Source of the DNA: a virus
Lineage: Duplodnaviria > Heunggongvirae > Uroviricota > Caudoviricetes
Virus record (IMG/VR): IMGVR_UViG_3300042535_000037
Coordinates: 36,031 to 100,030 of that record
Direction: 5' to 3' (one strand)
Length of the DNA stretch: 64,000 nt
The notes beneath the pieces are model-generated. The model did no database searches. It saw only the letters and a program-made list of their open reading frames with translations, and was not told the origin of the DNA. A program made the translations under genes and the position numbers. Positions 2,813 through 44,787 of this stretch are shown one piece after another. Positions within the stretch are counted from its first letter, which is position 1. Each line of letters starts with the position of its first letter.

Positions 2813-4351
2813 ATGAAAAAATTAGCCTCATTGATTGAATCCATAATGAATACATCTTCAACTAAAGCAAAGGAAGACCTTCTCGTTAACTTCCTGACAG
2901 AAAATCCATCTCCTGAATATATCCGTTTTCTTGGAAGTGAAATACTTCCGAAGCCTCAACCCTTAAACATAGGGAAAGCTACGGTCTCCAAAGCAATAGA
3001 AAACATTTCAGGTGCAAACATGAAAGAGCTCGTAAAAGAACATGGCTCCGTTTCACTTGCTACTTTCTATGCTTTCCAGAAAAGAAACACTAAGCCATCA
3101 ATATTTGATGACCTTCTGGTTCTTCCTTCCAAAAAATCAATTCTTACTATCCTTGAAAATATATCAAAGAATCAAAAGAAAGATGCTCAAGGAGAATACC
3201 TTTTCTCGATATTCAATGGACAAGACCCTCTATCTGCAATGGCTCTATCCCACTTCATTCTTGAAGACCTTCCCGTAGGCTATAACGACAAAATTCTCAT
3301 AAAAGCGATAGCTAGAGTCAAGTCTGTTCCAGCAGACCAAATAGAACTTGCTTACTACTTTACAAATTCATTTACAAAGTTAATGTATCTCAACAGTGTT
3401 GAGATTTCCTCTCTCATTGAAAAAGGTGCAGTAGTAGGATTTCCTGTAAAGTGTATGCTTTGTGAAACTCTCGAAAGTACATCATATCCTTGTATAACTC
3501 AACGTAAACTTGATGGCAACCGCTTACAAATTCACATTATATCTCCATCAATTTTCAAGTTATACTCCCGTAAGCTTGAAGATGTAACGGCATCACATCC
3601 CGACCTAGAGGAAGCAATCTCCAATTTCTACCATGACAATGTAAGTTACATGCCATGTATCTTAGATGGAGAAGCGATAATAGGTGGCAAGTTTACTGAT
3701 GGAATGACCCGCTTCCGAAGAAAACATGACATTGAAGAATATGCAGAAAAATATCCTGTGACTCTAAACATATTCGATATTATTGTGTGCTCAGGAGCCT
3801 CAATTGATAAAATGCCTCTTAGTGGTAGGATTGAATACCTTTCTACCTTCAAATTTAACGAAAGAATTCAACTAGTACCTCACATCATAACTAACTCTGA
3901 AGTGGAAATGCAGGAGTATTTCTCAATATGTCTTGAGGAAGGTTATGAAGGCATTATCATCAAAGACATAGAATCTCAATACCTCTTCAATTCAAGAGGC
4001 TCTGAATGGCAGAAACTCAAGCCTAAGTACACATACGACCTCATCTGCTACGATGGAAACTATGGAACCAACAAAAACAAAGATGTAATGTCATCCATCA
4101 AGCTTAAATCCTCTGAAGGCTTAGAATTAGGTAACTGCGCAGGTATATCCGAAGAGTCGATGCAGGAAATCACCAAGAGAATTGTTTCAGGTCAACAATT
4201 CGTTGTTGAAGTGGAGTTCGAATCTCTACAGAAAGGTGACACCTCTTCGGGTTACTCTCTTCGCTTCCCTCGCTTCATACGCATCCGTGATGACAAACAG
4301 TTATCTGAAGCAAACTCTATGAAAGACATAACCAAATGCAAGAGGACTTAA
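2813..4351 (+). CDS. lig: ATP-dependent DNA ligase
   Basis: motif I KLDGNR, motif IV EGIIIKD, motif V WQKLKPKY; 512 aa. Confidence 0.85.
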   Translation: MKKLASLIESIMNTSSTKAKEDLLVNFLTENPSPEYIRFLGSEILPKPQPLNIGKATVSKAIENISGANMKELVKEHGSVSLATFYAFQKRNTKPSIFDDLLVLPSKKSILTILENISKNQKKDAQGEYLFSIFNGQDPLSAMALSHFILEDLPVGYNDKILIKAIARVKSVPADQIELAYYFTNSFTKLMYLNSVEISSLIEKGAVVGFPVKCMLCETLESTSYPCITQRKLDGNRLQIHIISPSIFKLYSRKLEDVTASHPDLEEAISNFYHDNVSYMPCILDGEAIIGGKFTDGMTRFRRKHDIEEYAEKYPVTLNIFDIIVCSGASIDKMPLSGRIEYLSTFKFNERIQLVPHIITNSEVEMQEYFSICLEEGYEGIIIKDIESQYLFNSRGSEWQKLKPKYTYDLICYDGNYGTNKNKDVMSSIKLKSSEGLELGNCAGISEESMQEITKRIVSGQQFVVEVEFESLQKGDTSSGYSLRFPRFIRIRDDKQLSEANSMKDITKCKRT

Positions 4352-5620: not shown

Positions 5621-5753
5621 CTCTCTTCATCGGTTTTTCTCCAATTACATTAACTAACTTTCTAAAAACCTTTTTATATTTTCGAGTTGACATTAGGTTG
5701 TGCGGTCATTCATCGCTCACTTTGTCAACTCACTCATTCAGGACCGCACTGCC

Positions 5754-6101
5754 TCAACACTGTCTACTTCTAACAGGACAAAAGACTATTTCTTTCATCA
5801 TATACTTGCATTCACAAAAAGAGCATCCACATTTAAAATGTTGGCAAGTCAACTTACTTTCCTCTGAACAGCAAACGCTTTGCATATTCAAAATATCCTG
5901 AGCATATATTGGCTTTATACATCCAATTATCTCTTCAATATTTTCATTTATTCCATACACTAATACTAAAAATGTTTTCATGGACTTTTCAAAAGAAAGT
6001 CCAACAAGGCTCTGGACAAAATACGATGACCTCTTAAAATCATCATACATATTCCTGAACATCTCTTCTTTGAATGACACTTGTGCCATTTGTACCACCA
6101 T
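5754..6101 (-). CDS. Cys-rich zinc-binding protein
   Basis: C-terminal CC..C..C.C.C cluster; canonical promoter on minus strand (tttatatacaataaaacacatt..ATG). Confidence 0.5.
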   Translation of the reverse strand: MVVQMAQVSFKEEMFRNMYDDFKRSSYFVQSLVGLSFEKSMKTFLVLVYGINENIEEIIGCIKPIYAQDILNMQSVCCSEESKLTCQHFKCGCSFCECKYMMKEIVFCPVRSRQC

Positions 6102-9046: not shown

Positions 9047-9085
9047 CCTTTATATATACAAAACACCATTACTATATTGCTGGCA
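9047..9085 (+). promoter_or_regulatory. promoter cassette upstream of tRNA
   Basis: cctttatatatacaaaacaccattactatat. Confidence 0.45.
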
Positions 9086-9141: not shown

Positions 9142-9216
9142 GAGTCCGTAGCTCAGTTGGTAGTTAGCGTCTGACTGTTAATCAGAAGGTCGTAGGTTCG
9201 AACCCTGCCGGATTCG
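9142..9216 (+). tRNA. tRNA-Asn (GTT)
   Basis: cloverleaf: acceptor GAGTCCG/CGGATTC, U8, GG in D-loop, anticodon loop CUGUUAA, T-loop TTCGAAC, discriminator G; D-stem only 3 bp (TT insertion). Confidence 0.7.
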
Positions 9217-12801: not shown

Positions 12802-15800
12802 ATGAACCTTAAAAGCCTACTGATATTCCTATTCGTATTTCTTTTAACCATCAACGTAGGTTCCGCAGCTACACCGCCAATTGTGTACGTTGCTACTGAC
12901 GGAACAGGCGACTACAACTGTGATGGAACTGCCGACCAAGTACAATTAAACGATGCGTTATTATTTGCCTATAATAACAGAGCATCTGGATACACTACAG
13001 TCTACCTAAGAAGTGGAACTTACTGGATAGACTCTCAGATATTTCTCACCAACAACATAATTCTTACAGGTGATTCTACAGCTAAAATTAAGCTTATAGA
13101 CGACTGTCCTTGGCAAAGAACGTACACAGGTGCATTGGCATATTCATCTTCTGGTACTCAAACCTTGCCTATGATAATGGCTCGTAGTGGTCATAATACA
13201 GGTTTCACTATCACTAACATCATTATTGATGGAAACTCTCAAGGAAACACAGATGTACCATTTGGTCAGGGATGGTATAACCTCTTAAACTTCTACCAGT
13301 GTACACATGTTTCACTGGACCATGTTACGTTACAGTATGGTAAATCAGACGGATTTAAATTTCAGTCAGGCTCATACGCTTCAATGACAAACTGTAATGT
13401 CAACAAAATAGGTCACGATGCAGGGTATTTCCTATACTCAAACTACATAACGTTTACAAATAATACTGTATTTACTCGTACAAACTCTGCATGTCGTATC
13501 AGTAGCGGTGCTCACATAGTTATTGCTCACAACCATATTTACTCAGGAACCATTACCACTGCCGATGGTGGCGGCTCTTCAACCGGACCCGGAATTGAAA
13601 TAGATTTAGATGGCTCTGAATACTGTTATGATTGTGAAATATATGACAACGTAATTCATGACCTTAGAGGTTCAGGCATATGGATGACATCATCTAATGC
13701 AGATGGTGGAAGAGATGTTCACATCTATAACAATATAATTTATAATGTTGGTAAATATACTTACTTTAATGGTTACTCTATGGGTGGAATAACGCTCTTC
13801 CAATTCAACAATTCAATCATAGAGAACAATGTTTTTAATGAAGCAGGAGTGGGAGCACTCATTTACGCTGAAGGAACTGATTCTCCTACAGGTGGAAGCA
13901 AGCTTTATCATACTACTTTCAGAAACAACATAGTCATTAACACAAATGACCAACTACCAACTACTTCAGGTGGTTCAACTTACATATATGCAGTTCCAAT
14001 AATGAATCATGATGGAACTTACAGTAGAATCCATGCTTACAACAATGACTTCTACAACAACTACAACAACCTTGTCTACAAATCACACGTAGCTACAGAC
14101 TCTAACAACCTAGCAGTGGACCCTCAATTCGTAGATGCAACAAATCATAACTACCATCTAAAATCAACTGCTGGTCACTATAACAACGGAAATTGGGTAA
14201 TAGACGCTGTATCTTCATCACTCATAGATGCAGGTCTCTCTACTTCAGACTATTCCGATGAACCTGAACCCAACGGTAATCGCATCAACATAGATGCATA
14301 TGGAAATACTGCTCAGGCATCTAAATCTCCAACTGAGACAACACCTACCCCAGACCCAGACCCCGTTAATCCTGAGCCTGAACCTGTAGTAGTAGAGATA
14401 CAAGACCCTGTAGACAACCGCTTGCGCTCTCTATCTCCAACAACAGTATACTCTTCATCTACATACATAGATGCAGGAAATATAGCTTCTACGAGCTCTA
14501 CGGTGCGTGACCTGATTTGGTACGACCTAACAAATTACAACGATTCAAGCCAAGTAACTAGTGCCGAACTCAAATTGTTCTGGTATTATCAAACATCACG
14601 TACTTCAGATACAATCATAGAAATCTATAGACCTGCTGCAACATGGAGTACATCAACTGCAACATGGAACAATGCTAACACATGGTATGATGCTAACGGA
14701 GTGCTTGGTGGTTCAACACCATACGATTCAATCACATTCCCATCAACACAATCTCCAACAAACAGTTACTACTCATTTGATGTAACTGACCTTGTACAAG
14801 CATATGCAGAAGGAACCTACACTAACACAGGTTTCCTCATCAAAACACGTACAGAAAACAATGACTACGTTGCTTTCTACTCTCTAGACAACGGAAACTC
14901 TTCAAGGGTTCCAGTATTAGACATAAGTAGCACAGCAGTAAATATTGAAGCGTACTCTCCTACATCAAATCCAACGAAAACAGTAGGACAGTCACAAATT
15001 TTTACTACTCAATTAACTGCTACAGGAGATGTAGAATGGTCAGTTGATGGTATAATTAAGGAATATGACCTTAATACTCAACATGCATCATACACCTTCA
15101 CACCAACTGCTGCAAGAACCTATACGATAAGAGCAGAGACACCAACTGCTTACAAGTCTTGGTCTCTCACAGCTACATCAAATTCAACATCTAACCCTGC
15201 ATCTAACGTGACTACCTCAGTCTCAGGTATAGCCTACGTTGCTACTACAGGCTCCGACACTACAGGTAATGGTTCAATTTCTCTACCATATGCCACAATC
15301 ACAAAAGCCCTAACAACAACTGCACCTACAATCATGGTTAAAGGTGGTAACTATAACCTAGCTACCCCAATAACCCGTAGTAATGTAATAATTAAGGGAT
15401 ATAACGGCAATGCAGTATTTGACCATTCCGATGATACAGGAACAGCCTTCACGGTTACAGGTAGAACAAACATTACTCTACAGAATCTCATAATTCGTAA
15501 CTATGAATATGGTGTCTATGGAACAACTTCACTAACAAACTTGATAGTAGAGAACTGTTCAATCACAAATAATGCTCAGGACTCAATCTGGCTCGACCAG
15601 ATAAACGCCAACGGAATATACCTATATAACTCTACATTTGCAGACAATGAATATCACGGTGTCCATCTATCTAACCAAGAAGTAGGAAAACTAATCCAAA
15701 ATGTAGTCATAGAAAACAATGATTTCTATGATTGTCCAAGTAATCTATTGGACTTCCGTTCCAACGTTACGGATGTTACTTGCTCTGAAAATTATTACTA

Positions 15801-16824
15801 CTTCAACTCAGATGAAATCCAGCAGGTAGGAGTATATATCCACAATAACAACTTGGAGACATTTAGTTTCACTAATGAAGAATTCTATAACTGTGCTAGA
15901 CCTATGGAAATACTCAACGGTCAATCAGTTACAGTTACAAGTTCTCACTGGAACAATATTCACGATGCAACTGCACCACCAGTCTACGTCAATGGAGTTG
16001 AATTCCCTGTTACAGCTTCAGGTAGAGCAATTCTCTTCGGTGGTAACTCTCCAACTAACGAAGGAACTACATATACAGGATACAACAATGTATTCACTGA
16101 TATAGAGCAAACTCTATTTCCAACATACTCTGAAGCAGTAGGAACACCAGTTACAGTGCGTGAATATAACGCTACACTATCAAATGTATCTAAAATATTC
16201 TCTACTTCATCCTGCATAGAAAATATTGCAATACAAACATACCATAATTCACCAGTTAAAACCTTTGAATTTACAAATGCAAATGCTTTGACTTGGAAAT
16301 GGTATGTTAACAATACTTTGGTAGAAACAGACACTAATACGTACTTCCCATCACGTATTCAGAGCGGAATGACAACTGGAACCAATGTCTCAGCAATATG
16401 CACAGACAACGGTGATACACTCCGCATGACTTGGATTAGAGGAAATGGAACAGAAGTTAACGGTGTAATCTACACTAGATACCCGTATACAAGTTCTCCA
16501 AAGCAACTGAAGGGCAATGATGTTTCATTCTCTCTTACTCTCAATGGAAATGCAGACACAAAATGGTATGTAGATAATGTTCTTGTGGAAACAGATTCTT
16601 CCTCAAGTCCAACTTACATATACAATGCCACTGTATCTGGAACACATGTAGTAAAAGCAGTGACATCAGAAGAGACATACACTTGGAATCTTAACGTAGA
16701 AAACCCACAGCAAAAGTTCTACGTAGGTGTAATCACAAGAATAGGTCAAGTGCTATCTTGGGATACAAGAAAACCAACATATGACGACCAAGTTGTAGAC
16801 GGGTTCACCATAATTACAAGGTGA
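12802..16824 (+). CDS. giant secreted right-handed beta-helix (pectin-lyase-fold) repeat protein, adhesin/receptor-binding-like
   Basis: signal peptide; repeated NxxxxN/beta-helix turns (NNTVFTRTN, IAHNHIYSG, DNVIHDLRGSGIWM, ITNNAQDSIWLD); Pro/Thr linker. Confidence 0.75.
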   Translation: MNLKSLLIFLFVFLLTINVGSAATPPIVYVATDGTGDYNCDGTADQVQLNDALLFAYNNRASGYTTVYLRSGTYWIDSQIFLTNNIILTGDSTAKIKLIDDCPWQRTYTGALAYSSSGTQTLPMIMARSGHNTGFTITNIIIDGNSQGNTDVPFGQGWYNLLNFYQCTHVSLDHVTLQYGKSDGFKFQSGSYASMTNCNVNKIGHDAGYFLYSNYITFTNNTVFTRTNSACRISSGAHIVIAHNHIYSGTITTADGGGSSTGPGIEIDLDGSEYCYDCEIYDNVIHDLRGSGIWMTSSNADGGRDVHIYNNIIYNVGKYTYFNGYSMGGITLFQFNNSIIENNVFNEAGVGALIYAEGTDSPTGGSKLYHTTFRNNIVINTNDQLPTTSGGSTYIYAVPIMNHDGTYSRIHAYNNDFYNNYNNLVYKSHVATDSNNLAVDPQFVDATNHNYHLKSTAGHYNNGNWVIDAVSSSLIDAGLSTSDYSDEPEPNGNRINIDAYGNTAQASKSPTETTPTPDPDPVNPEPEPVVVEIQDPVDNRLRSLSPTTVYSSSTYIDAGNIASTSSTVRDLIWYDLTNYNDSSQVTSAELKLFWYYQTSRTSDTIIEIYRPAATWSTSTATWNNANTWYDANGVLGGSTPYDSITFPSTQSPTNSYYSFDVTDLVQAYAEGTYTNTGFLIKTRTENNDYVAFYSLDNGNSSRVPVLDISSTAVNIEAYSPTSNPTKTVGQSQIFTTQLTATGDVEWSVDGIIKEYDLNTQHASYTFTPTAARTYTIRAETPTAYKSWSLTATSNSTSNPASNVTTSVSGIAYVATTGSDTTGNGSISLPYATITKALTTTAPTIMVKGGNYNLATPITRSNVIIKGYNGNAVFDHSDDTGTAFTVTGRTNITLQNLIIRNYEYGVYGTTSLTNLIVENCSITNNAQDSIWLDQINANGIYLYNSTFADNEYHGVHLSNQEVGKLIQNVVIENNDFYDCPSNLLDFRSNVTDVTCSENYYYFNSDEIQQVGVYIHNNNLETFSFTNEEFYNCARPMEILNGQSVTVTSSHWNNIHDATAPPVYVNGVEFPVTASGRAILFGGNSPTNEGTTYTGYNNVFTDIEQTLFPTYSEAVGTPVTVREYNATLSNVSKIFSTSSCIENIAIQTYHNSPVKTFEFTNANALTWKWYVNNTLVETDTNTYFPSRIQSGMTTGTNVSAICTDNGDTLRMTWIRGNGTEVNGVIYTRYPYTSSPKQLKGNDVSFSLTLNGNADTKWYVDNVLVETDSSSSPTYIYNATVSGTHVVKAVTSEETYTWNLNVENPQQKFYVGVITRIGQVLSWDTRKPTYDDQVVDGFTIITR

Positions 16825-16837
16825 ACCAACACTTTTT

Positions 16838-17095
16838 TATATATGAAAGTACTATTACTACTTACTTGGAAAATGCATCCAAGTTGCCATAGTAAAAAAC
16901 TCCTCTAAGAAAACCTCGGTGTACAATCCACCGAGGTTCAACGAATCCCACAAGCATCAAGGCGATGCAACACAACTGGCGATGATGGAACGATGAGCGA
17001 AAGCATGTCCTAGCTGGTAAGTAGGCAAGTGCGCATAACCGAAATACCGTGTGTCCTTTGCAAAGGGCTTGGTTCAATTCCAAGGTGGGATACTT
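16838..17095 (+). ncRNA. candidate structured ncRNA driven by a canonical promoter
   Basis: promoter+leader then only an 11-codon ORF; ~50% GC segment with 10-bp hairpin (16911-16938), GAAA-loop helix, tRNA-T-arm-like hairpin cttggTTCAATTccaag, and a 7-nt pairing ATCCCAC(16945)/GTGGGAT(17086). Confidence 0.35.
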
Positions 17096-17124
17096 TTTTA
17101 TACATAAACCACTATTACTACAGC

Positions 17125-18542: not shown

Positions 18543-19223
18543 ATGAGTAGGAAATACTTGAAAATAGATACCCTCTGGAAGAGAAGAGAAGGAAAGAAAG
18601 GAGCAGTAATTCCAAATGACTACTCCAATCCAGTTTTTCCAAACATAAAAATGTGGATTGCCACAGAAAAAATCAATGGAGAAAACATTCGTATTATGTA
18701 CGATGGCTCTACAAAGACAGTTTCATATGCTGGAAAAACTGATGATGCAGAAATATTTCCAGAGATAATGGATTATCTTCAGGAAAAATTCAGCATAGAG
18801 AAATTCAGAGCTCTTGATAATTTTGACGAAGATACCGACATAACAATTTTCGCTGAGGCTTGCCATAAAAGAATATTAGATTCATATGTATATTTAAAAT
18901 CAGACGAAGTTGCCAAGGTCATCATTTTTGATGTTAAAATAGGCAAGTGGTGGCTGGAACACAACAATGTAATTTCAATTGCAACACATTTTGTTGTTGA
19001 TAATGCACCAGTTCGCTACATAGGAACCATTGAAGAATTGATTAAATTTGTAGTTAAGGAGCAGCAAAGTGTACTTACATATCCTAAAGAAGTAACATTC
19101 GAAGGAATTGTTTGTACTCCACATCCAATGGTGCTCAATCGTGACGGAACTCCCGTTAAGTTCAAGCTAAAGGTTGAAGATTTCCGCAAGCTAAAAGCCA
19201 TAGGCGAAGAATACAAGGTGTAA
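18543..19223 (+). CDS. minimal RNA-ligase-like nucleotidyltransferase (Rnl2-like core)
   Basis: motif I KINGEN, motif III FAEACH, motif IV EGIVC, motif V KFKLK. Confidence 0.55.
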   Translation: MSRKYLKIDTLWKRREGKKGAVIPNDYSNPVFPNIKMWIATEKINGENIRIMYDGSTKTVSYAGKTDDAEIFPEIMDYLQEKFSIEKFRALDNFDEDTDITIFAEACHKRILDSYVYLKSDEVAKVIIFDVKIGKWWLEHNNVISIATHFVVDNAPVRYIGTIEELIKFVVKEQQSVLTYPKEVTFEGIVCTPHPMVLNRDGTPVKFKLKVEDFRKLKAIGEEYKV

Positions 19224-32705: not shown

Positions 32706-34694
32706 GTGATGGTTATGAAAAAATACTTTATTTTATTTTTACTCCTACTCATATCAACGGCAAGTGCAGTTGATGTGAACCCACCCTTAGTATTTGCGGG
32801 TAATACAACTTCAGTTACTCTCAATTACTCAACTACAGTTGATGCCTTAACATTCTATTCTCAAAACAATACCCTAGTAATGGATGATATATCTCATCAG
32901 TTTACTACTACAGGAACGATGAATGTTACTTTCAACGGTTTATTAGAGCTTACTCATACAGGTAGCACAGGTACTTGGACCGTTGGCGGGCTACAGGATG
33001 GAAACTATTCTCTATACATAGACGACTCCTTCTATGAAACAATTTCAAATGGAGATGCTGTATCCCTTAATTCTATAGCAAAATATGAAATTCAACCAGC
33101 AGACGATGTTATGACTTTGAACATGACTTATTGGGAACCTCTCAATGAAACATGTGCTAAATTCACCATCTCAAATGTCTATACAGCATGGTATCCACAG
33201 CTTTCATACACAGTAGCAGACCATACATATTTCCTTTACCGTGACTCAACAGGAACTCTCCTTGCAACTAACGCTACTACATCAACAAACCAAACCATCA
33301 CACTTATAGGAGACTCCATACTTACTTCAGGAAATTATACCATCACTCACATTTTAACATCACTTGTAGGAGTAACTGTTCCAGAAATTACATCATACTC
33401 ACCATCTACACCATCATTCTCAATATTACCAAGTGGTCAAACATCTCAGAGAACATTTACAATTTCATCTGCCAATGACCCCAACTTAGACGTAAAATGG
33501 TATTATGGTGACAAATTCTACAGTTCATACGCCAATGATGAAAATTACATATCTACTTATGGATATACATTAGTAGACACTGTAGAAGTCAATTCTACAT
33601 CAACAACACATACATTCACAACTGATGAACCTGAAACAATAGGTGTAATTGCTCGTCTTATGAATGAGTCAAGTGGTCTCTATGAAGACAAAATCTGGAA
33701 TTGGGTAGTTCAGGAACCAGACTTTGATGAATCTATGGAATATAGTAGTGTTCCTACAGAGAAACCAAACACTATCATCCTTACATCTTCAAATGAGCAC
33801 ATATCAAGTGTAATCTTAGAGTATGAAATTGATGGGGAATACACTAACGTAACAATGGAATCTACATACTCTAATTATGAATATGGAGAAACCATTAACA
33901 ATGAAACTTCATACACATATACTGAAATATTTGAATGTGAAATTAACCCAATGGAAGAAGGAACCTATAACATTGCATCATACTATGTAACTCAGGATGG
34001 AGTTCAATACTCTATAGATGGAAATCTTGAGTTTACAGCAGCAGTAGATGGTTCCACAGTTCAATATACAACTCGTTCTTCCGGTGGCTCATCTTCCGGT
34101 GGTAGTGGTGGAAGTTCAAAGACAACTCAGACCCAAGAAATCATAGAAAAACTCGTAGTTAAAGATGGAGTGGAAACATTCAAGAAGACTTCAGAACACT
34201 CTCTATATTCAGTTTCATCATCAGATGAATCATTTACTGTGCTTGTAAAAGATATAGACAGTGAATTAGAAGATGAATCCGTCTACAAAGAAATGGACAT
34301 TTCAACAACTGAAAACGAAACAGTTGACATAACATTCCTTGTAGATACCTCTTGGCTTAACGAAAATGGCGGCTCTGTAAAACTCCTTCATTATACAAAC
34401 GATGAATGGGTAGAAGTTCCAGTAAAGATGCTCTCAAAGACAGATGACTATGTTAAATATGGAGCAACATTAACTTCATACTCTCCATATGCAATCGTGG
34501 CATCCAACGCCAACGTAGGAACCTCTACGAGCGACTCAGACGTAGGAACCTACATTATCATAGCAGTACTTGTAATAGGAGCTCTAGCGTACCTAAGATT
34601 CAAGCCAAGGTCAAAGAAACCCTTTAGTCTTAAATCCCTAAACAAGACTAAACAAAAATCAAAGCCAAAAAAGAGAAATTGGACAGAATTATGA
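32706..34694 (+). CDS. cell-surface protein (signal peptide, Gly/Ser linker, C-terminal TM + basic tail)
   Basis: canonical promoter; S/T-rich. Confidence 0.6.
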   Translation: MMVMKKYFILFLLLLISTASAVDVNPPLVFAGNTTSVTLNYSTTVDALTFYSQNNTLVMDDISHQFTTTGTMNVTFNGLLELTHTGSTGTWTVGGLQDGNYSLYIDDSFYETISNGDAVSLNSIAKYEIQPADDVMTLNMTYWEPLNETCAKFTISNVYTAWYPQLSYTVADHTYFLYRDSTGTLLATNATTSTNQTITLIGDSILTSGNYTITHILTSLVGVTVPEITSYSPSTPSFSILPSGQTSQRTFTISSANDPNLDVKWYYGDKFYSSYANDENYISTYGYTLVDTVEVNSTSTTHTFTTDEPETIGVIARLMNESSGLYEDKIWNWVVQEPDFDESMEYSSVPTEKPNTIILTSSNEHISSVILEYEIDGEYTNVTMESTYSNYEYGETINNETSYTYTEIFECEINPMEEGTYNIASYYVTQDGVQYSIDGNLEFTAAVDGSTVQYTTRSSGGSSSGGSGGSSKTTQTQEIIEKLVVKDGVETFKKTSEHSLYSVSSSDESFTVLVKDIDSELEDESVYKEMDISTTENETVDITFLVDTSWLNENGGSVKLLHYTNDEWVEVPVKMLSKTDDYVKYGATLTSYSPYAIVASNANVGTSTSDSDVGTYIIIAVLVIGALAYLRFKPRSKKPFSLKSLNKTKQKSKPKKRNWTEL

Positions 34695-36860
34695 TTCTGT
34701 CTCATACATATTTCTTATTTCAATAATATTCTTGTGACAAATATATGGCATCTTTTCTTTCTTTCTTAATAGCCATCCATAGAACTCATTGTCTTCCTTC
34801 GTGAACAACTTATTCTCATGAACACTTCTACTCTTCTTTAATTTGTGAGCAACATCTCTAGCCTTCTTCCATCTCCTATAATACGCGCCCTTGATTTTTA
34901 CCATCTTTCCTTCTGCATCCTCAAGGACATAACCTTCAATGTACTCTCCGTTCCTCTTGAATTCCATAGCAGTAGACTCTTCTACAAACTTAGTGAATTC
35001 ATTGGAATCATTAATTTCCCCATCATACTCCTTTACTTCTGCTCCAATCAACTTTCCAAGACTAACCAACTGTTCATATGGTAATCTCTCAAGCTTGAAG
35101 TCATTCTTTACTACATCGAGTAAAATTACTTCCTTTCTTTCATACTCTATTATATGTGGGTCATTTTCAGGGTCAAGAACCTCAAACACAAAGGTTACAT
35201 TGAAGTCCTTGATATATTGCTCAAGTGCATCTATGTTAAGACTCTTGGTTGCAATATGCTTGAACCAATCCGCGTATATACCTTCGGTAGTACTCTTACT
35301 TGCATAAAGCATTCCCAACTCTTCATCTCTTCCTATAAGCCCTAGGAACCCATTATACTTCACGAACTTATGTATCGGGTACTTAGCATTTACACTTATC
35401 TTTTGGAACGATGCAGACTCATTTTCATCAATATTAAAGAACTTCTCATAAGCTCTCATGACTATCTTGCCTGTTTGGACATTGACAAATAATCCTCTTG
35501 CCTTGATTGTCTGCTCATTCCAAATCTTCTTCCTAAATACCTCTCTGTCAAAATTATAGCTTACAATCTTGCCATCACACATGAAAACCTTGTTTATATT
35601 GTCATTTGCGTTCAGCTTTTCAAGCATTTCTCCCTCTGGAAGAACCTTTTCTTCATATTGCCTGAATACCGTATTAACTGTATAAACAAAGTCATATCCA
35701 TTTTCACTAATCTCAAATGCCCTGAGATTATCTCCCTTTTCTACTTCAGAATCTACTATGAAGCATCTTTCATTCATTACGGGTAACTTTGCTATATTTC
35801 TATGACCAAATACCTGATAATGATTCTCAGGAGCATTTTCATTGAAGGACTTAACTACTTCTCCTATTGACTTGTACTGACCGACACCATTTATCATCTG
35901 CTCAGTACTAATCAAAGCCAAGAACTGCGGAATATTGCTTAATCCACCGTGAGTACAAAGGAACCTTTCTCCATTATATTCATAATAGAAACACTCAAGC
36001 AGCTTCCTACACAACATTCTGACCTGCTTCTTAGTAACCCCATTAGGTTCCAAGTCCTTTGGCAAAGTCCTGTAAGTAAACTCCCTGCTCTGACAACTAA
36101 ATGGTACATTATCAGGTGAATTTCCCCACAACCAGAGCCATCTCTCATGGTTTCCTTCTAGCAAAACTACGTTCTTCTTTTCTGCAATTTCACAAAGGAA
36201 CTTAACGACCTTGGCATTCTCGATGCCTCTATCAATATAATCCCCTGTGAATATATAGAATTCATCATCTCTGATTTCACCATCTAGATACTCCATCAAT
36301 GCAGTGTGACATCCATGAATATCTCCGATATGGTGAATCTTCTTATATCCATTCAAATTTACACAAATATTCTTAACTTCTCCAAAGAAGTTATCCTTGT
36401 CAATAAACTTGACATACTTCTGTGTTTCAAAGTTATCGAATCTTGAGTACATCCTGTCAATTACATCTTCAGGCACGAACTTGTATGCATCTCTACTTCT
36501 ATTCCTTTCCTTGCAAATTTCAATTGGAACATCTGTAAAGTCAACACATCTCAATCTGTACCTATACTTTTCACAAAGAGTCTTATATCTGGTGAAATCT
36601 GTTCTCTTGCTATGGGTAGCATCAATTACTATAAAGTCTCCCCTATCCATTCTCTTCTCAAGAATCTCGAACATTAAATCCCAAACGTAATTATCATTCC
36701 TCTGGCTAATTCCCATATTTCCTTCAGCCGTAAGTTCAGGACTCTGACACAGGAGCCTTATATCATCAAGACAAATAGTATATGGCTCTAATCCATTCTC
36801 CCTAATCCAAGTGCTCTTTCCACTTGCAGGGCTACCTCTTGTAACTATTAAATATCTCAT
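34689..36860 (-). CDS. pnkp: polynucleotide kinase-phosphatase-ligase (bacterial Pnkp-like trifunctional end-healing/sealing enzyme)
   Basis: N-terminal P-loop GSPASGKST; central GDIHGCH, GDYIDRG, GNHE phosphoesterase; C-terminal nucleotidyltransferase motif I KYNGF. Confidence 0.7.
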   Translation of the reverse strand: MRYLIVTRGSPASGKSTWIRENGLEPYTICLDDIRLLCQSPELTAEGNMGISQRNDNYVWDLMFEILEKRMDRGDFIVIDATHSKRTDFTRYKTLCEKYRYRLRCVDFTDVPIEICKERNRSRDAYKFVPEDVIDRMYSRFDNFETQKYVKFIDKDNFFGEVKNICVNLNGYKKIHHIGDIHGCHTALMEYLDGEIRDDEFYIFTGDYIDRGIENAKVVKFLCEIAEKKNVVLLEGNHERWLWLWGNSPDNVPFSCQSREFTYRTLPKDLEPNGVTKKQVRMLCRKLLECFYYEYNGERFLCTHGGLSNIPQFLALISTEQMINGVGQYKSIGEVVKSFNENAPENHYQVFGHRNIAKLPVMNERCFIVDSEVEKGDNLRAFEISENGYDFVYTVNTVFRQYEEKVLPEGEMLEKLNANDNINKVFMCDGKIVSYNFDREVFRKKIWNEQTIKARGLFVNVQTGKIVMRAYEKFFNIDENESASFQKISVNAKYPIHKFVKYNGFLGLIGRDEELGMLYASKSTTEGIYADWFKHIATKSLNIDALEQYIKDFNVTFVFEVLDPENDPHIIEYERKEVILLDVVKNDFKLERLPYEQLVSLGKLIGAEVKEYDGEINDSNEFTKFVEESTAMEFKRNGEYIEGYVLEDAEGKMVKIKGAYYRRWKKARDVAHKLKKSRSVHENKLFTKEDNEFYGWLLRKKEKMPYICHKNIIEIRNMYETES

Positions 36861-36909
36861 CTAAATCACAAGAGGTTTTATAGGTACTACACCTATATAA
36901 CCTTTGTTA

Positions 36910-37143
36910 TCAAAAAATCATCACGTTTTCTACAACACTAACAGGGTTGTAGTAGCACCACTGACTAATCAGAGTATCAACTTCTTCCTTATTCCAAGAT
37001 GGAATAACCAGCTTTACATACAAAAATTCACCATCATTACCTTCTTCACAGTCAACATCCAAATCTTCTAACTCCGATATCATAGCCTTGTAGCTATCTC
37101 TCATCATCTCTCCATCTACTTTTAGGAACGTTGTTTTCTTCAT
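36910..37143 (-). CDS. small acidic protein
   Basis: ORF. Confidence 0.4.
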   Translation of the reverse strand: MKKTTFLKVDGEMMRDSYKAMISELEDLDVDCEEGNDGEFLYVKLVIPSWNKEEVDTLISQWCYYNPVSVVENVMIF

Positions 37144-37227
37144 GCTTTTATTAATGTAATTTTTTATATATCAATGTTTCCCACCAACCTTATATACTAA
37201 AAACCCATCCTCTCACTGAGGAACATC

Positions 37228-42696: not shown

Positions 42697-42811
42697 GTAA
42701 TCACTTAATTTTAATTTTTACATAAGTAATAGCTATTCAAATATTTAAAACTTTGTATACAAAAATGCCTCAAAAATAAGTAATCGCTAAAAAAGTATAA
42801 AAAGGTTTTCT

Positions 42812-42955
42812 TTAGAGCATATTTGCTGCTTGCTCCACTAAGTTTTCCTTATTCTCTTTCTTAGTAAAGAACTGCTTTCTATCTCTAATTGCTATATATC
42901 CAATTACCATCACAAAAATTGTGACACTAAACCAGAAGAATTCTATTGAATCCAT
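42812..42955 (-). CDS. 47-aa membrane peptide
   Basis: minus-oriented canonical promoter at 42960-43010. Confidence 0.35.
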   Translation of the reverse strand: MDSIEFFWFSVTIFVMVIGYIAIRDRKQFFTKKENKENLVEQAANML

Positions 42956-43020
42956 TTTCTATTCTCCAAATAAGTAATAGTTATTTAAATATTTAAGCTT
43001 ATCCATAAGTGCGAAACACT

Positions 43021-43330
43021 TATATATGCTAAAACACATTACTTACTATTGGTACGAAATGAGCATTCGTACTACGGCTCTTGAGTGAGTTACAGACTGC
43101 TCACCCAATATAAACATACATTGTATATTTTCTATATACTTTGCATGTAAGTCTGACAGGAAACGCCACTGGTAGACCACAGTAAAATCTCGGTGCAGAC
43201 CGCGCCAGCTATTATTTAGCAACGATGAGATAAATTGAGCAACCAAGTGCATTGCGTACAGAGGGGTTAAGTAGTGAAATGGTCGAACTTCACATAAATC
43301 TTACACAACTCAGGCGTTTCCTGTAAACCA
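43021..43330 (+). ncRNA. candidate structured ncRNA driven by canonical promoter
   Basis: promoter-leader then 9-codon ORF only; GC-rich segment with several hairpins (gtacg..cgtac, gtgag..ctcac); antisense ORF looks spurious. Confidence 0.35.
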
Positions 43331-43365
43331 TAACTTTTTTATACATAAAACACCTATTAACCTTC

Positions 43366-43977
43366 ATGTCATCAATTTCAGAGTTAGCATCTTACTTTCA
43401 CGCTCAGGTGCTAAGAATCCCACACGAAGGAACTAACCCAACTAAACGCTTCCTCACAGAAGACCAAATCTTAAAGCTCTTCACTGGAACCGTTTCTATC
43501 CAAGAAAAAGTAGATGGTAAGCTTTGCTTCCGTGAAGCTTTTGACTACGAATTCTCAGGAAAGGGTAAATTAGCTTTTATGTGGGAAGACTTCAATGCAA
43601 AAAAGTCTGTACACACTCACATAAAAAGTTACAACAGACCACCAGTAAATCTAAGAGTTTACTTAGATGCAGTTCTTGAAGTAGAGGGTTATACACCTTT
43701 CATAATTCCACATACAGATAAAGACCTTACAATTGCAACTATAAAGTTCAATGAGCCAAACATTGATGACATATACACAATACTAGAAAAACTTGCTAAT
43801 CGCAAATCCATCTACGGAGACACTAAAATAGAGGGTCTTGTAATAAAGAACTTTGGAGTCATCAACAATGTTTCAATACAAGAAATAATCCGTACTCCAC
43901 ACCTATTTCCATCCCGCCCTCTCTTCGGAAAGTACATAAACACAGAATTTGAGGATGCTTTACATGAACGAGTATAA
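43366..43977 (+). CDS. minimal covalent nucleotidyltransferase (RNA/DNA ligase-like core)
   Basis: motif I EKVDGKL, motif IV EGLVIKN, motif V FGKY. Confidence 0.5.
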   Translation: MSSISELASYFHAQVLRIPHEGTNPTKRFLTEDQILKLFTGTVSIQEKVDGKLCFREAFDYEFSGKGKLAFMWEDFNAKKSVHTHIKSYNRPPVNLRVYLDAVLEVEGYTPFIIPHTDKDLTIATIKFNEPNIDDIYTILEKLANRKSIYGDTKIEGLVIKNFGVINNVSIQEIIRTPHLFPSRPLFGKYINTEFEDALHERV

Positions 43978-44332: not shown

Positions 44333-44787
44333 GACCATCTCAAGATGAATACTACATGAACATCGCAAAGGTCGTAGCGACCCGCTCAACATGCGTTCGT
44401 AGACAAATAGGTACAGTACTTGTCCGTTACAATTCAATCCTTGCTACAGGCTACAACGGAGCTCCCAGAGGCTTACCACACTGCATAGATGTAGGCTGTA
44501 TCCGTGAACAACTCAATATCCCCTCTGGAACCCAACATGAGCGTTGCCAAGCTATTCACAGTGAAGTTAATGCAATTTTACAATGTGCTCTTCATGGAAT
44601 CTCTACAAAAGGAGCTATCCTCTATTGTACAAATCAACCATGCTCAATTTGTGCTCGCATAATTATTAATGCAGGTATCTCAAGAATCATCTATGAAGGT
44701 TCCTATCCCGATGAAGCAACTATAAATCTCTTCAAACAAGCCAACATTCCTCTTGTAAAAATGCAAGTAAAACCTTTTATACATTAA
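44329..44787 (+). CDS. dCMP deaminase (cytidine/deoxycytidylate deaminase family)
   Basis: HSEVNAI and PCSICA zinc motifs; SD AAGGAGT. Confidence 0.85.
   Translation: MRPSQDEYYMNIAKVVATRSTCVRRQIGTVLVRYNSILATGYNGAPRGLPHCIDVGCIREQLNIPSGTQHERCQAIHSEVNAILQCALHGISTKGAILYCTNQPCSICARIIINAGISRIIYEGSYPDEATINLFKQANIPLVKMQVKPFIH

Follow-up and report, generated by a model that had tools for sequence, protein, structure and literature searches.

Immediately upstream of the promoter of an RNA-ligase-like gene, at positions 43021-43330 of the window (the whole stretch of viral DNA analysed here, 64,000 nucleotides in length), lies a segment in which a promoter is followed by structured sequence with no plausible gene. 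Does this segment, termed B, specify an RNA of its own, does it act on the gene beside it, or is it spacer? A sequence-only reading had proposed a candidate non-coding RNA, or else a leader regulated by a tiny upstream ORF, and had grouped the segment with a second locus of similar appearance, candidate A. All of the anatomy described there was recovered in our analysis. The upstream promoter is present at 43020-43049, as a variant of the recurrent motif AACCAnnACTTTTTTATACATAAAACAC with a 1-nt difference in spacing, and the 9-codon ORF lies at 43059-43088. The segment is indeed GC-rich, with a GC content of 0.397 (43021-43330) and 0.45 in its core (43156-43324), compared with 0.36 in the window and 0.25 in the spacer at 42956-43019. 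It stops at the promoter of the ligase-like gene (43326-43353), ahead of the ATG at 43366. Its sole long ORF is the antisense frame of 68 aa (43046-43252) that had been judged implausible; this frame was not conserved in the only relative we located, metagenomic contig L001, and a six-frame comparison of segment B with L001 yielded no conserved ORF.

Source element and transcription signals

The window has a GC content of 36% and carries nearly all of its genes on the plus strand. Its source contig has a length of 183 kb, and we infer that it belongs to a virus or extrachromosomal element of large size whose host is a methanogen-type archaeon. The main clue to a Methanosarcina-like archaeal host is a 1340-aa protein with disaggregatase domains (Table 1), a domain family that we take to be typical of Methanosarcina. 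The region containing segment B is identical on an independent SRA-derived contig (L002), and the segment is therefore no assembly artefact.

Approximately 21 plus-strand copies of the 28-nt motif AACCAnnACTTTTTTATACATAAAACAC occur in the window, located 11-23 nt 5' of start codons and often accompanied by a GGTGA Shine-Dalgarno sequence. The copies are strongly conserved and lead into a (C)ATTACTTAC initiator region. Given its TATA-like box, its A/C-rich upstream part, and leaders that are short or absent, the motif is read here as a predicted archaeal promoter. The T5-6 run within the copies probably also terminates the preceding gene, so that each copy would be a terminator and a promoter together. 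On the opposite strand, a partly palindromic 25-mer, AAGTAATAGYTATTYAAATATTTAA, was found in two copies (42724-42748 and 42972-42996), approximately 16-27 nt 5' of the starts of two genes on the minus strand, which encode 240 aa and 47 aa; these copies are probably the promoters of the two genes, in an opposite-strand variant.

The promoter of segment B contains a TATA-like part (TTATATATGC) and an initiator-like part (ATTACTTACTAT). Its alignment with the remaining promoters of the element is good, and it scores under the PWM cut-off used because its spacing differs by 1 nt. The exact variant, TTATATATRY(T)AAAACAC(C)ATTACT, was found at only two sites in the window, at segment B and upstream of the tRNA-Asn gene, and its counterpart in L001 is CTTATATATTTAAAATACAC (5704-5723). 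Judged from these motifs, transcription would start at approximately 43040-43050. Oligo-T tracts are terminators for archaeal RNA polymerase, and the T6 run at 43335-43340 would accordingly be the putative terminator of the RNA; the same run also falls within the TATA region of the promoter that follows (43326-43353), which is the top-scoring promoter of the window (36-37 bits) and the point at which segment B stops. The PWM scan detected no minus-strand promoter able to read segment B.

A fold kept without sequence conservation in a distant relative

The multiple hairpins claimed for the segment were borne out by folding. The minimum free energy (MFE) of 43021-43340 was -82.2 kcal/mol (z = -3.4 against dinucleotide shuffles, with 0 of 100 shuffles equalling it), and the z-scores ranged from -3.4 to -3.8 across shuffle tests. 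A perfect 12-bp inverted repeat (43156-43167 / 43313-43324) encloses 145 bp. In the predicted core this repeat would form the terminal helix P1, which closes a four-way junction bearing a hairpin (P2), a branched arm (P3), and a long P4-P5 arm whose end loop would pair with the loop of P2 (Table 1). The two strands are indistinguishable by folding energy. In a hand alignment with L001, 5 G-U cells against 1 A-C cell were counted on the plus strand, and these G-U pairs, together with the upstream plus-strand promoter and the downstream T-run, point to an RNA read from the plus strand.

Table 1 Features of segment B, its surroundings, and other loci of the window that are discussed in the text
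Feature	Position	Strand	Description
Promoter variant of segment B	43020..43049	+	TTATATATGC 43020-43029, TAAAACAC 43030-37, ATTACTTACTAT 43038-49
5' leader (predicted)	43050..43155	+	Three hairpins; contains the 9-codon ORF
Leader hairpins	43051-58/43066-73; 43085-89/43100-04; 43123-28/43134-39	+	From the fold
9-codon ORF	ATG 43059 to TGA 43088	+	MSIRTTALE
Structured core (predicted)	43156..43324	+	169 nt, four-way junction P1-P5; MFE and constrained folds, L001 comparison
P1	43156-67/43313-24	+	12 bp, perfect
P2	43168-71/43180-83	+	4 bp, loop 6-8 nt; no linker from P1
P3	43187-91/43227-31	+	4-5 bp; A-rich linker from P2
P3a; P3b	43192-96/43202-06; 43208-11/43217-20	+	Small hairpins enclosed by P3
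P4 (UGAG/CUCA)	43236-39/43309-12	+	Abuts P1 3' strand; 4-5-nt linker from P3
Window-specific hairpin	43247-50/43256-59	+	Extra compared with L001
P5a; P5b	43265-68/43297-300; 43274-78/43289-93	+	Continuation of P4
P2 loop GACCA with P5 loop UGGUC	43175..43179 with 43280-43284	+	Proposed 5-bp pairing
Junction block AAUUGAGCA	43233..43241	+	J3/4 and P4 5' strand; identical in L001; unique in window
T-run CTTTTTTATACA	43334..43345	+	T6 run 43335-43340, approximately 10 nt 3' of P1
RNA-ligase-type nucleotidyltransferase	43366..43977	+	Minimal, 203 aa; KxDG motif QEKVDGK
AACCAnnACTTTTTTATACATAAAACAC sites (examples)	2774, 8405, 20633, 43326, 61971, 62410	+	
ATP-dependent DNA ligase	2813-4351		
tRNA-Asn(GUU)	Gene 9142-9216, promoter at 9050	+	Promoter TTATATATAC AAAACACCATTACT, same rare variant as segment B
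1340-aa protein	12802-16824		Beta-helix, disaggregatase-associated and disaggregatase-repeat domains
Probable candidate A	16824-17100; promoter 16824, RNA 16944-17094	+	
Second RNA ligase	18543-19223		phrog_548
Kinase-phosphatase-Rnl1 fusion	34689-36860	-	39% identical to SPbeta-like/Twort-like phage proteins

In L001, the counterpart lies at 5814-5959 in a syntenic intergenic region of 409 nt, which shows near-random sequence divergence from the window. Synteny extends over both flanks, with small zinc-ribbon genes and a minus-strand membrane protein of 44-47 aa, and the downstream genes encode, in this order, the ligase, a protein homologous to the 127-aa protein, and dCMP deaminase. An insertion in L001 has placed one additional gene beyond the intergenic region, on the side away from the ligase, and the adjacency to the ligase is kept. 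A comparison by nhmmer aligned the promoter-proximal end only (E=0.12), and a sequence-only model of the window copy gave no match at 5814-5959, whereas a single-sequence covariance model (CM) built from the window copy and its structure matched this interval end to end (23.3 bits, E=3.2e-5). The similarity is therefore carried by secondary structure.

Compensatory changes were found at 11 of the 39 model pairs in the model-fitted alignment of the two sequences, against 0-2 in slid-partner controls. An unfitted alignment (MAFFT and RNAalifold) recovered P1, P3, and P5b with 9 compensatory pairs and aligned the UGGUN loops. A hand tally of 48 pairs, made with a pairing model that is partly hand-aligned and post hoc for a family of two sequences, comprised 19 compensatory, 4 one-sided, and 21 identical pairs, and 4 that were broken in one sequence. 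Two members are too few for covariation statistics of the R-scape type, and P4 and the junction blocks, being invariant, carry no covariation signal. Both RNAs can adopt the shared architecture at an energy within 3-4 kcal/mol of their MFE. The fold has been kept between the window copy and L001 without conservation of sequence, and structural conservation in a related genome, which had been proposed as a check on the candidate, thus lends support to the non-coding RNA reading.

Only three longer blocks are identical between the two copies, namely GU(U)AAAAU (43182-43188), AAUUGAGCA, and CUCAGGCG (43309-43316). All three cluster at the four-way junction, in contrast to the co-varying arms, and on this basis we consider the junction core to be the functional site. 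The complementary loops of P2 and P5 read CACCG and UGGUG in L001, with one G-C pair swapped to C-G relative to the window. A run of at least 5 bp in both loop pairs occurred in 0.6% of loop shuffles, a figure that belongs to a post hoc observation. In the model, this pairing might act within one molecule as a loop-loop tertiary contact, or join two molecules as a kissing contact.

The exact complement of AAUUGAGCA was also seen in the dCMP deaminase gene (9 nt at 44641-44649 of the window and 8 nt at 7818-7825 of L001), where it falls on the codons of the zinc-binding PCSIC motif in both genomes. As a 9-mer is expected approximately 0.4 times per window, this is probably a coincidence; the PCSIC site is a possible antisense target.

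Given the small number of sequences, we asked how far the structure and covariation might be products of chance and selective alignment in a functionless spacer or decayed gene remnant. The promoter, a partial Shine-Dalgarno sequence (GGTA), the ATG, and the 9-codon ORF do resemble a dead gene start, and the account draws further support from a model that is partly hand-made and a family of two. It has difficulty, however, in explaining why the CM match (E=3e-5) fell at the exact syntenic site where the sequence-only model was blank, why the unfitted alignment still contained compensatory pairs, and why the fold departs so far from shuffled sequences; moreover, no protein-level similarity to L001 is left in any frame. 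We regard it as quite improbable.

A function of the DNA itself, whether as a site of recombination or packaging, as an origin, or as a MITE bounded by the inverted repeat, appears highly improbable. The perfect terminal repeats and the divergent intergenic location would suit such an element. The segment is, however, present as a single copy, both in the window and across all loci fetched, its flanks are without target-site duplication, and it occupies the same syntenic position in a genome that has diverged to 58% protein identity. A MITE or transposon remnant was rejected on the first two of these grounds. Further, the internal helices co-vary and contain G-U pairs, for which the opposite strand would have A-C, and the GC skew is without an inflection.

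Searches for further copies ended with these two members. In the window, blastn, nhmmer, and the CM with filters off found no second copy of segment B, only its 3'-flanking promoter being repeated. JGI metagenome loci were fetched around 48 ligase relatives, and 22 were CM-searched with default filters. The CM-searched loci were L005-L021, L024, L025, L028, L035, L038, L045, and L048-L052, with filters off for L005-L011; no homologue was detected among them, nor any beyond L001 in approximately 1.2 Mb of fetched loci. Likewise, none was found in phage GenBank by blastn, in IMG/VR by peptide and DNA patterns, or by searches with two proteins encoded nearby, of 78 aa and 1173 aa. A pattern search of GTDB genomes returned 8 chance matches, all of which were rejected by the CM.

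The leader, the ligase gene, and regulation in cis

Neither the leader sequence nor the 9-codon ORF has a counterpart in L001, where the first ATG past the promoter, as read from the sequence, gives a 2-codon ORF. Because the short ORF is absent from L001, being conserved neither in position nor in peptide, and because the ligase has a promoter of its own, a leader regulated by an upstream ORF is unlikely, and this part of the earlier proposal was abandoned.

Regulation in cis can be conceived more broadly, with segment B as a riboswitch or attenuator for the ligase, the 127-aa protein, and dCMP deaminase, in which a ligand or protein at the junction and the stability of P1 would set the choice between stopping at the T6 run and reading through. 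The same block of genes, whose products handle nucleotides, lies directly downstream in both genomes, the T-run is only approximately 10 nt from P1, and the conserved nucleotides cluster in a P1-closed multi-helix junction, as in many aptamers. The likeness to SAM-I- and lysine-type riboswitch aptamers includes the P1-closed junction, the loop-loop contact, and the conservation at the junction; the differences are the separate promoter before the ORF, the long leader, the lack of an Rfam match, and the archaeal context. Against such regulation stands the fact that the top-scoring promoter of the window sits between the structure and the ATG of the ligase, as does its equivalent in L001 (5961-88), so that the structure is not the leader of the ligase, which has its own, nearly leaderless start. 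A riboswitch or 5' leader of the ligase gene is disfavoured on this basis, read-through being possible. Furthermore, a leader of 110 nt before an aptamer would be atypical, the promoter variant is that of a tRNA gene, no Rfam riboswitch matched, and riboswitches are rare in archaea. We consider regulation in cis distinctly unlikely.

The ligase gene adjoins the predicted RNA in both the window and L001. The 203-aa protein has one close relative (58% identity, in L001) and approximately 30 distant ones. Members of this family (homologues P0002-P0034) are approximately 180-210 aa in length, consist of an adenylyltransferase domain only, and are without a Pfam domain; they were found on archaeal or viral metagenomic contigs, sometimes beside RlaP and intein-containing RtcB genes. 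Six distant homologues are packed against upstream ORFs with gaps of at most 160 nt, and a general coupling of the ligase family to an upstream RNA was rejected accordingly. Since these homologues have no room upstream and the RNA was not detected in their loci, the adjacency of RNA and ligase is limited to the lineage of the window and L001 and may be plain synteny.

The set of ligation and repair genes in the element is unusually large. The element has three RNA-ligase-type genes, together with a polynucleotide kinase-phosphatase, a tRNA gene, and an intron-bearing tRNA-like gene, which we group as its RNA-centred programme, and the window also encodes a UvrD-type helicase, dCMP deaminase, and a thymidylate-synthase-like protein besides the DNA ligase in Table 1. 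The kinase-phosphatase-Rnl1 fusion is adjoined by a Band-7/flotillin protein and an uncharacterised protein of 662 aa. Between this minus-strand gene (Pnkp-Rnl) and that of the 1173-aa protein, the sequence at 36861-37227 folds better than its shuffles (z = -2.9) and contains a strong, imperfect 14-bp hairpin at approximately 36871-36905.

Known RNAs, the tRNA-type genes, and a proposed function

At gathering score, no family in Rfam 15, which covers RNase P, SRP, Y RNA, pRNA, C/D sRNAs, riboswitches, ribozymes, and ROOL/GOLLD, matched segment B, and the Infernal/Rfam check suggested with the original candidate thus led to no known family. The sub-threshold matches at E<=10 were unrelated and were discordant between the window and L001. 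At the same cut-off, no tRNA match was obtained for 42700-43450 or 43140-43345. ARAGORN, intron mode included, predicted only the tRNA-Asn at 9142 and nothing at segment B, and lowering the thresholds produced noise. With both ARAGORN and the Rfam tRNA model (RF00005) silent, a tRNA was rejected. An archaeal C/D-box sRNA was rejected as well, since CGAUGAG at 43222-43228 of the window corresponds to CUAUGGA in L001 and there is no conserved CUGA partner. Resemblances by eye to RNase P CR-I and to CRISPR repeats involved motifs that are unconserved in L001 and were dropped for this reason. Neither P3 nor the lower end of P1 showed any BHB splice motif.

Nevertheless, the modelled core has several features reminiscent of a tRNA. 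It has four helices at one junction. The terminal helix is directly followed by a 4-bp hairpin resembling a D arm, then by a 5-bp arm and a linker of 4-5 nt that recalls the variable loop, and the arm after this linker stacks on the terminal helix; the 'D-like' arm pairs through its end loop with that of the 'T-like' arm, and the promoter variant and gene layout are the same as those of the tRNA-Asn gene of the element. It differs from a tRNA in that P1 has 12 bp instead of 7 and the arms are expanded, for a total of 169 nt; it also lacks a T-loop sequence, an anticodon loop of 7 nt, and a linker of 2 nt behind P1.

Two other known RNAs offer partial parallels. The pRNA of the phi29 family is approximately 120-174 nt in length and transcribed from its own promoter; its ends are paired in a long helix, and its loops pair between molecules. 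Segment B would resemble it (RF00044) as a viral RNA with its own promoter, paired ends, a central junction, and complementary, co-varying loops. It differs in its four-way junction, compared with three-way in pRNA, in having no RF00044 match, and in belonging to a large archaeal virus-like genome in which neither a motor nor a terminal protein of phi29 type was identified. YrlA, a class of Y-RNA-like RNAs in bacteria and phages, is structured, with paired ends and a tRNA-like module, and occurs at Rsr/RtcB RNA-repair loci. Segment B shares with it the predicted structure with paired 5' and 3' ends and the position beside an RNA ligase gene, but has no Rfam match, and the adjoining ligase is of the ATP-type Rnl kind and not RtcB. 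No Ro/TROVE protein was found among the window proteins scanned.

A closer comparison is available within the element itself. The promoter of the locus that is probably candidate A is canonical, and the locus also contains an 11-codon ORF and a leader of approximately 90 nt with a 9-bp hairpin. Its RNA folds into a cloverleaf whose acceptor stem has 7 bp (AUCCCAC/GUGGGAU); a D arm is present, the variable arm is long, and the T arm (CUUGGUUCAAUUCCAAG) is canonical. Only when an insert of 64 nt in the anticodon loop (16984-17047) is left out does ARAGORN recognise a tRNA, with anticodon GGC and a length of 85 nt. According to this modelled fold, candidate A is a tRNA-like gene with a 64-nt insertion and is not of the same family as segment B. 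The insert carries C/D-box-like GAUGA motifs, and it is odd that this gene joins a type-II (Ser/Leu-like) body to an Ala anticodon while lacking G3:U70. The tRNA-Asn gene has a leader of 75 nt with a GC hairpin. A layout of promoter, 75-110-nt hairpin leader, structured RNA, and T-run of the next promoter is common to candidate A, segment B, and tRNA-Asn. The common architecture that the sequence-only reading saw in A and B therefore holds for the gene layout and fails for the RNAs, which are of different kinds. The further suggestion of one RNA class does not hold, as candidate A is tRNA-like and the window contains no further match to the CM of segment B.

In sum, segment B has compensatory structure, no ORF, a promoter, and a T-run, as expected of a structured non-coding RNA gene, and its transcription is predicted from these signals. 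Our preferred reading, to which we assign a probability of roughly two in three, is that segment B is an independent plus-strand gene for a small structured non-coding RNA; that this RNA acts in trans in an RNA-centred programme is proposed with low confidence. Transcription would begin at the tRNA-gene-type promoter variant, as suggested by motif similarity, and the transcript would span the hairpin leader of approximately 110 nt and the 169-nt core before ending at the T6 run. The leader might then be cut off, leaving a stable particle of approximately 170-190 nt with paired ends; its removal is expected by analogy, because the tRNA-Asn and tRNA-like genes have the same layout. The compact fold would be held by the loop-loop contact, and the conserved junction would offer a working surface, most likely for a protein. 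Given the tRNA-type promoter, the loose cloverleaf likeness, and the three RNA-ligase-type genes with end-healing enzymes, we speculate, again with low confidence, that a trans-acting, protein-binding RNA might serve a tRNA or RNA-repair programme as a tRNA-shaped decoy, a scaffold, or a ligase substrate. A bolder and on the whole unlikely extension is that segment B founds a new class of RNAs in archaeal viruses, as a particle that is shaped like a tRNA without being one and whose paired ends and co-varying, complementary loops serve a novel mechanism. Such a particle might be a decoy or scaffold that shields the tRNA/RNA-repair programme of the element from RNA-targeting defences of the host, or it might be circularised or form a pRNA-like multimer with the help of the adjacent ligase.

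As the family has two members and transcription is predicted from sequence signals, segment B is a well-supported candidate rather than a discovery. To our knowledge, very few structured non-coding RNAs from archaeal viruses or extrachromosomal elements have been described, and the architecture seen here has no equivalent among Rfam families. If expressed, segment B would represent a new RNA family with a compact, probably protein-binding fold, and it would provide a testable entry into how such elements handle or manipulate the RNA metabolism of their hosts.
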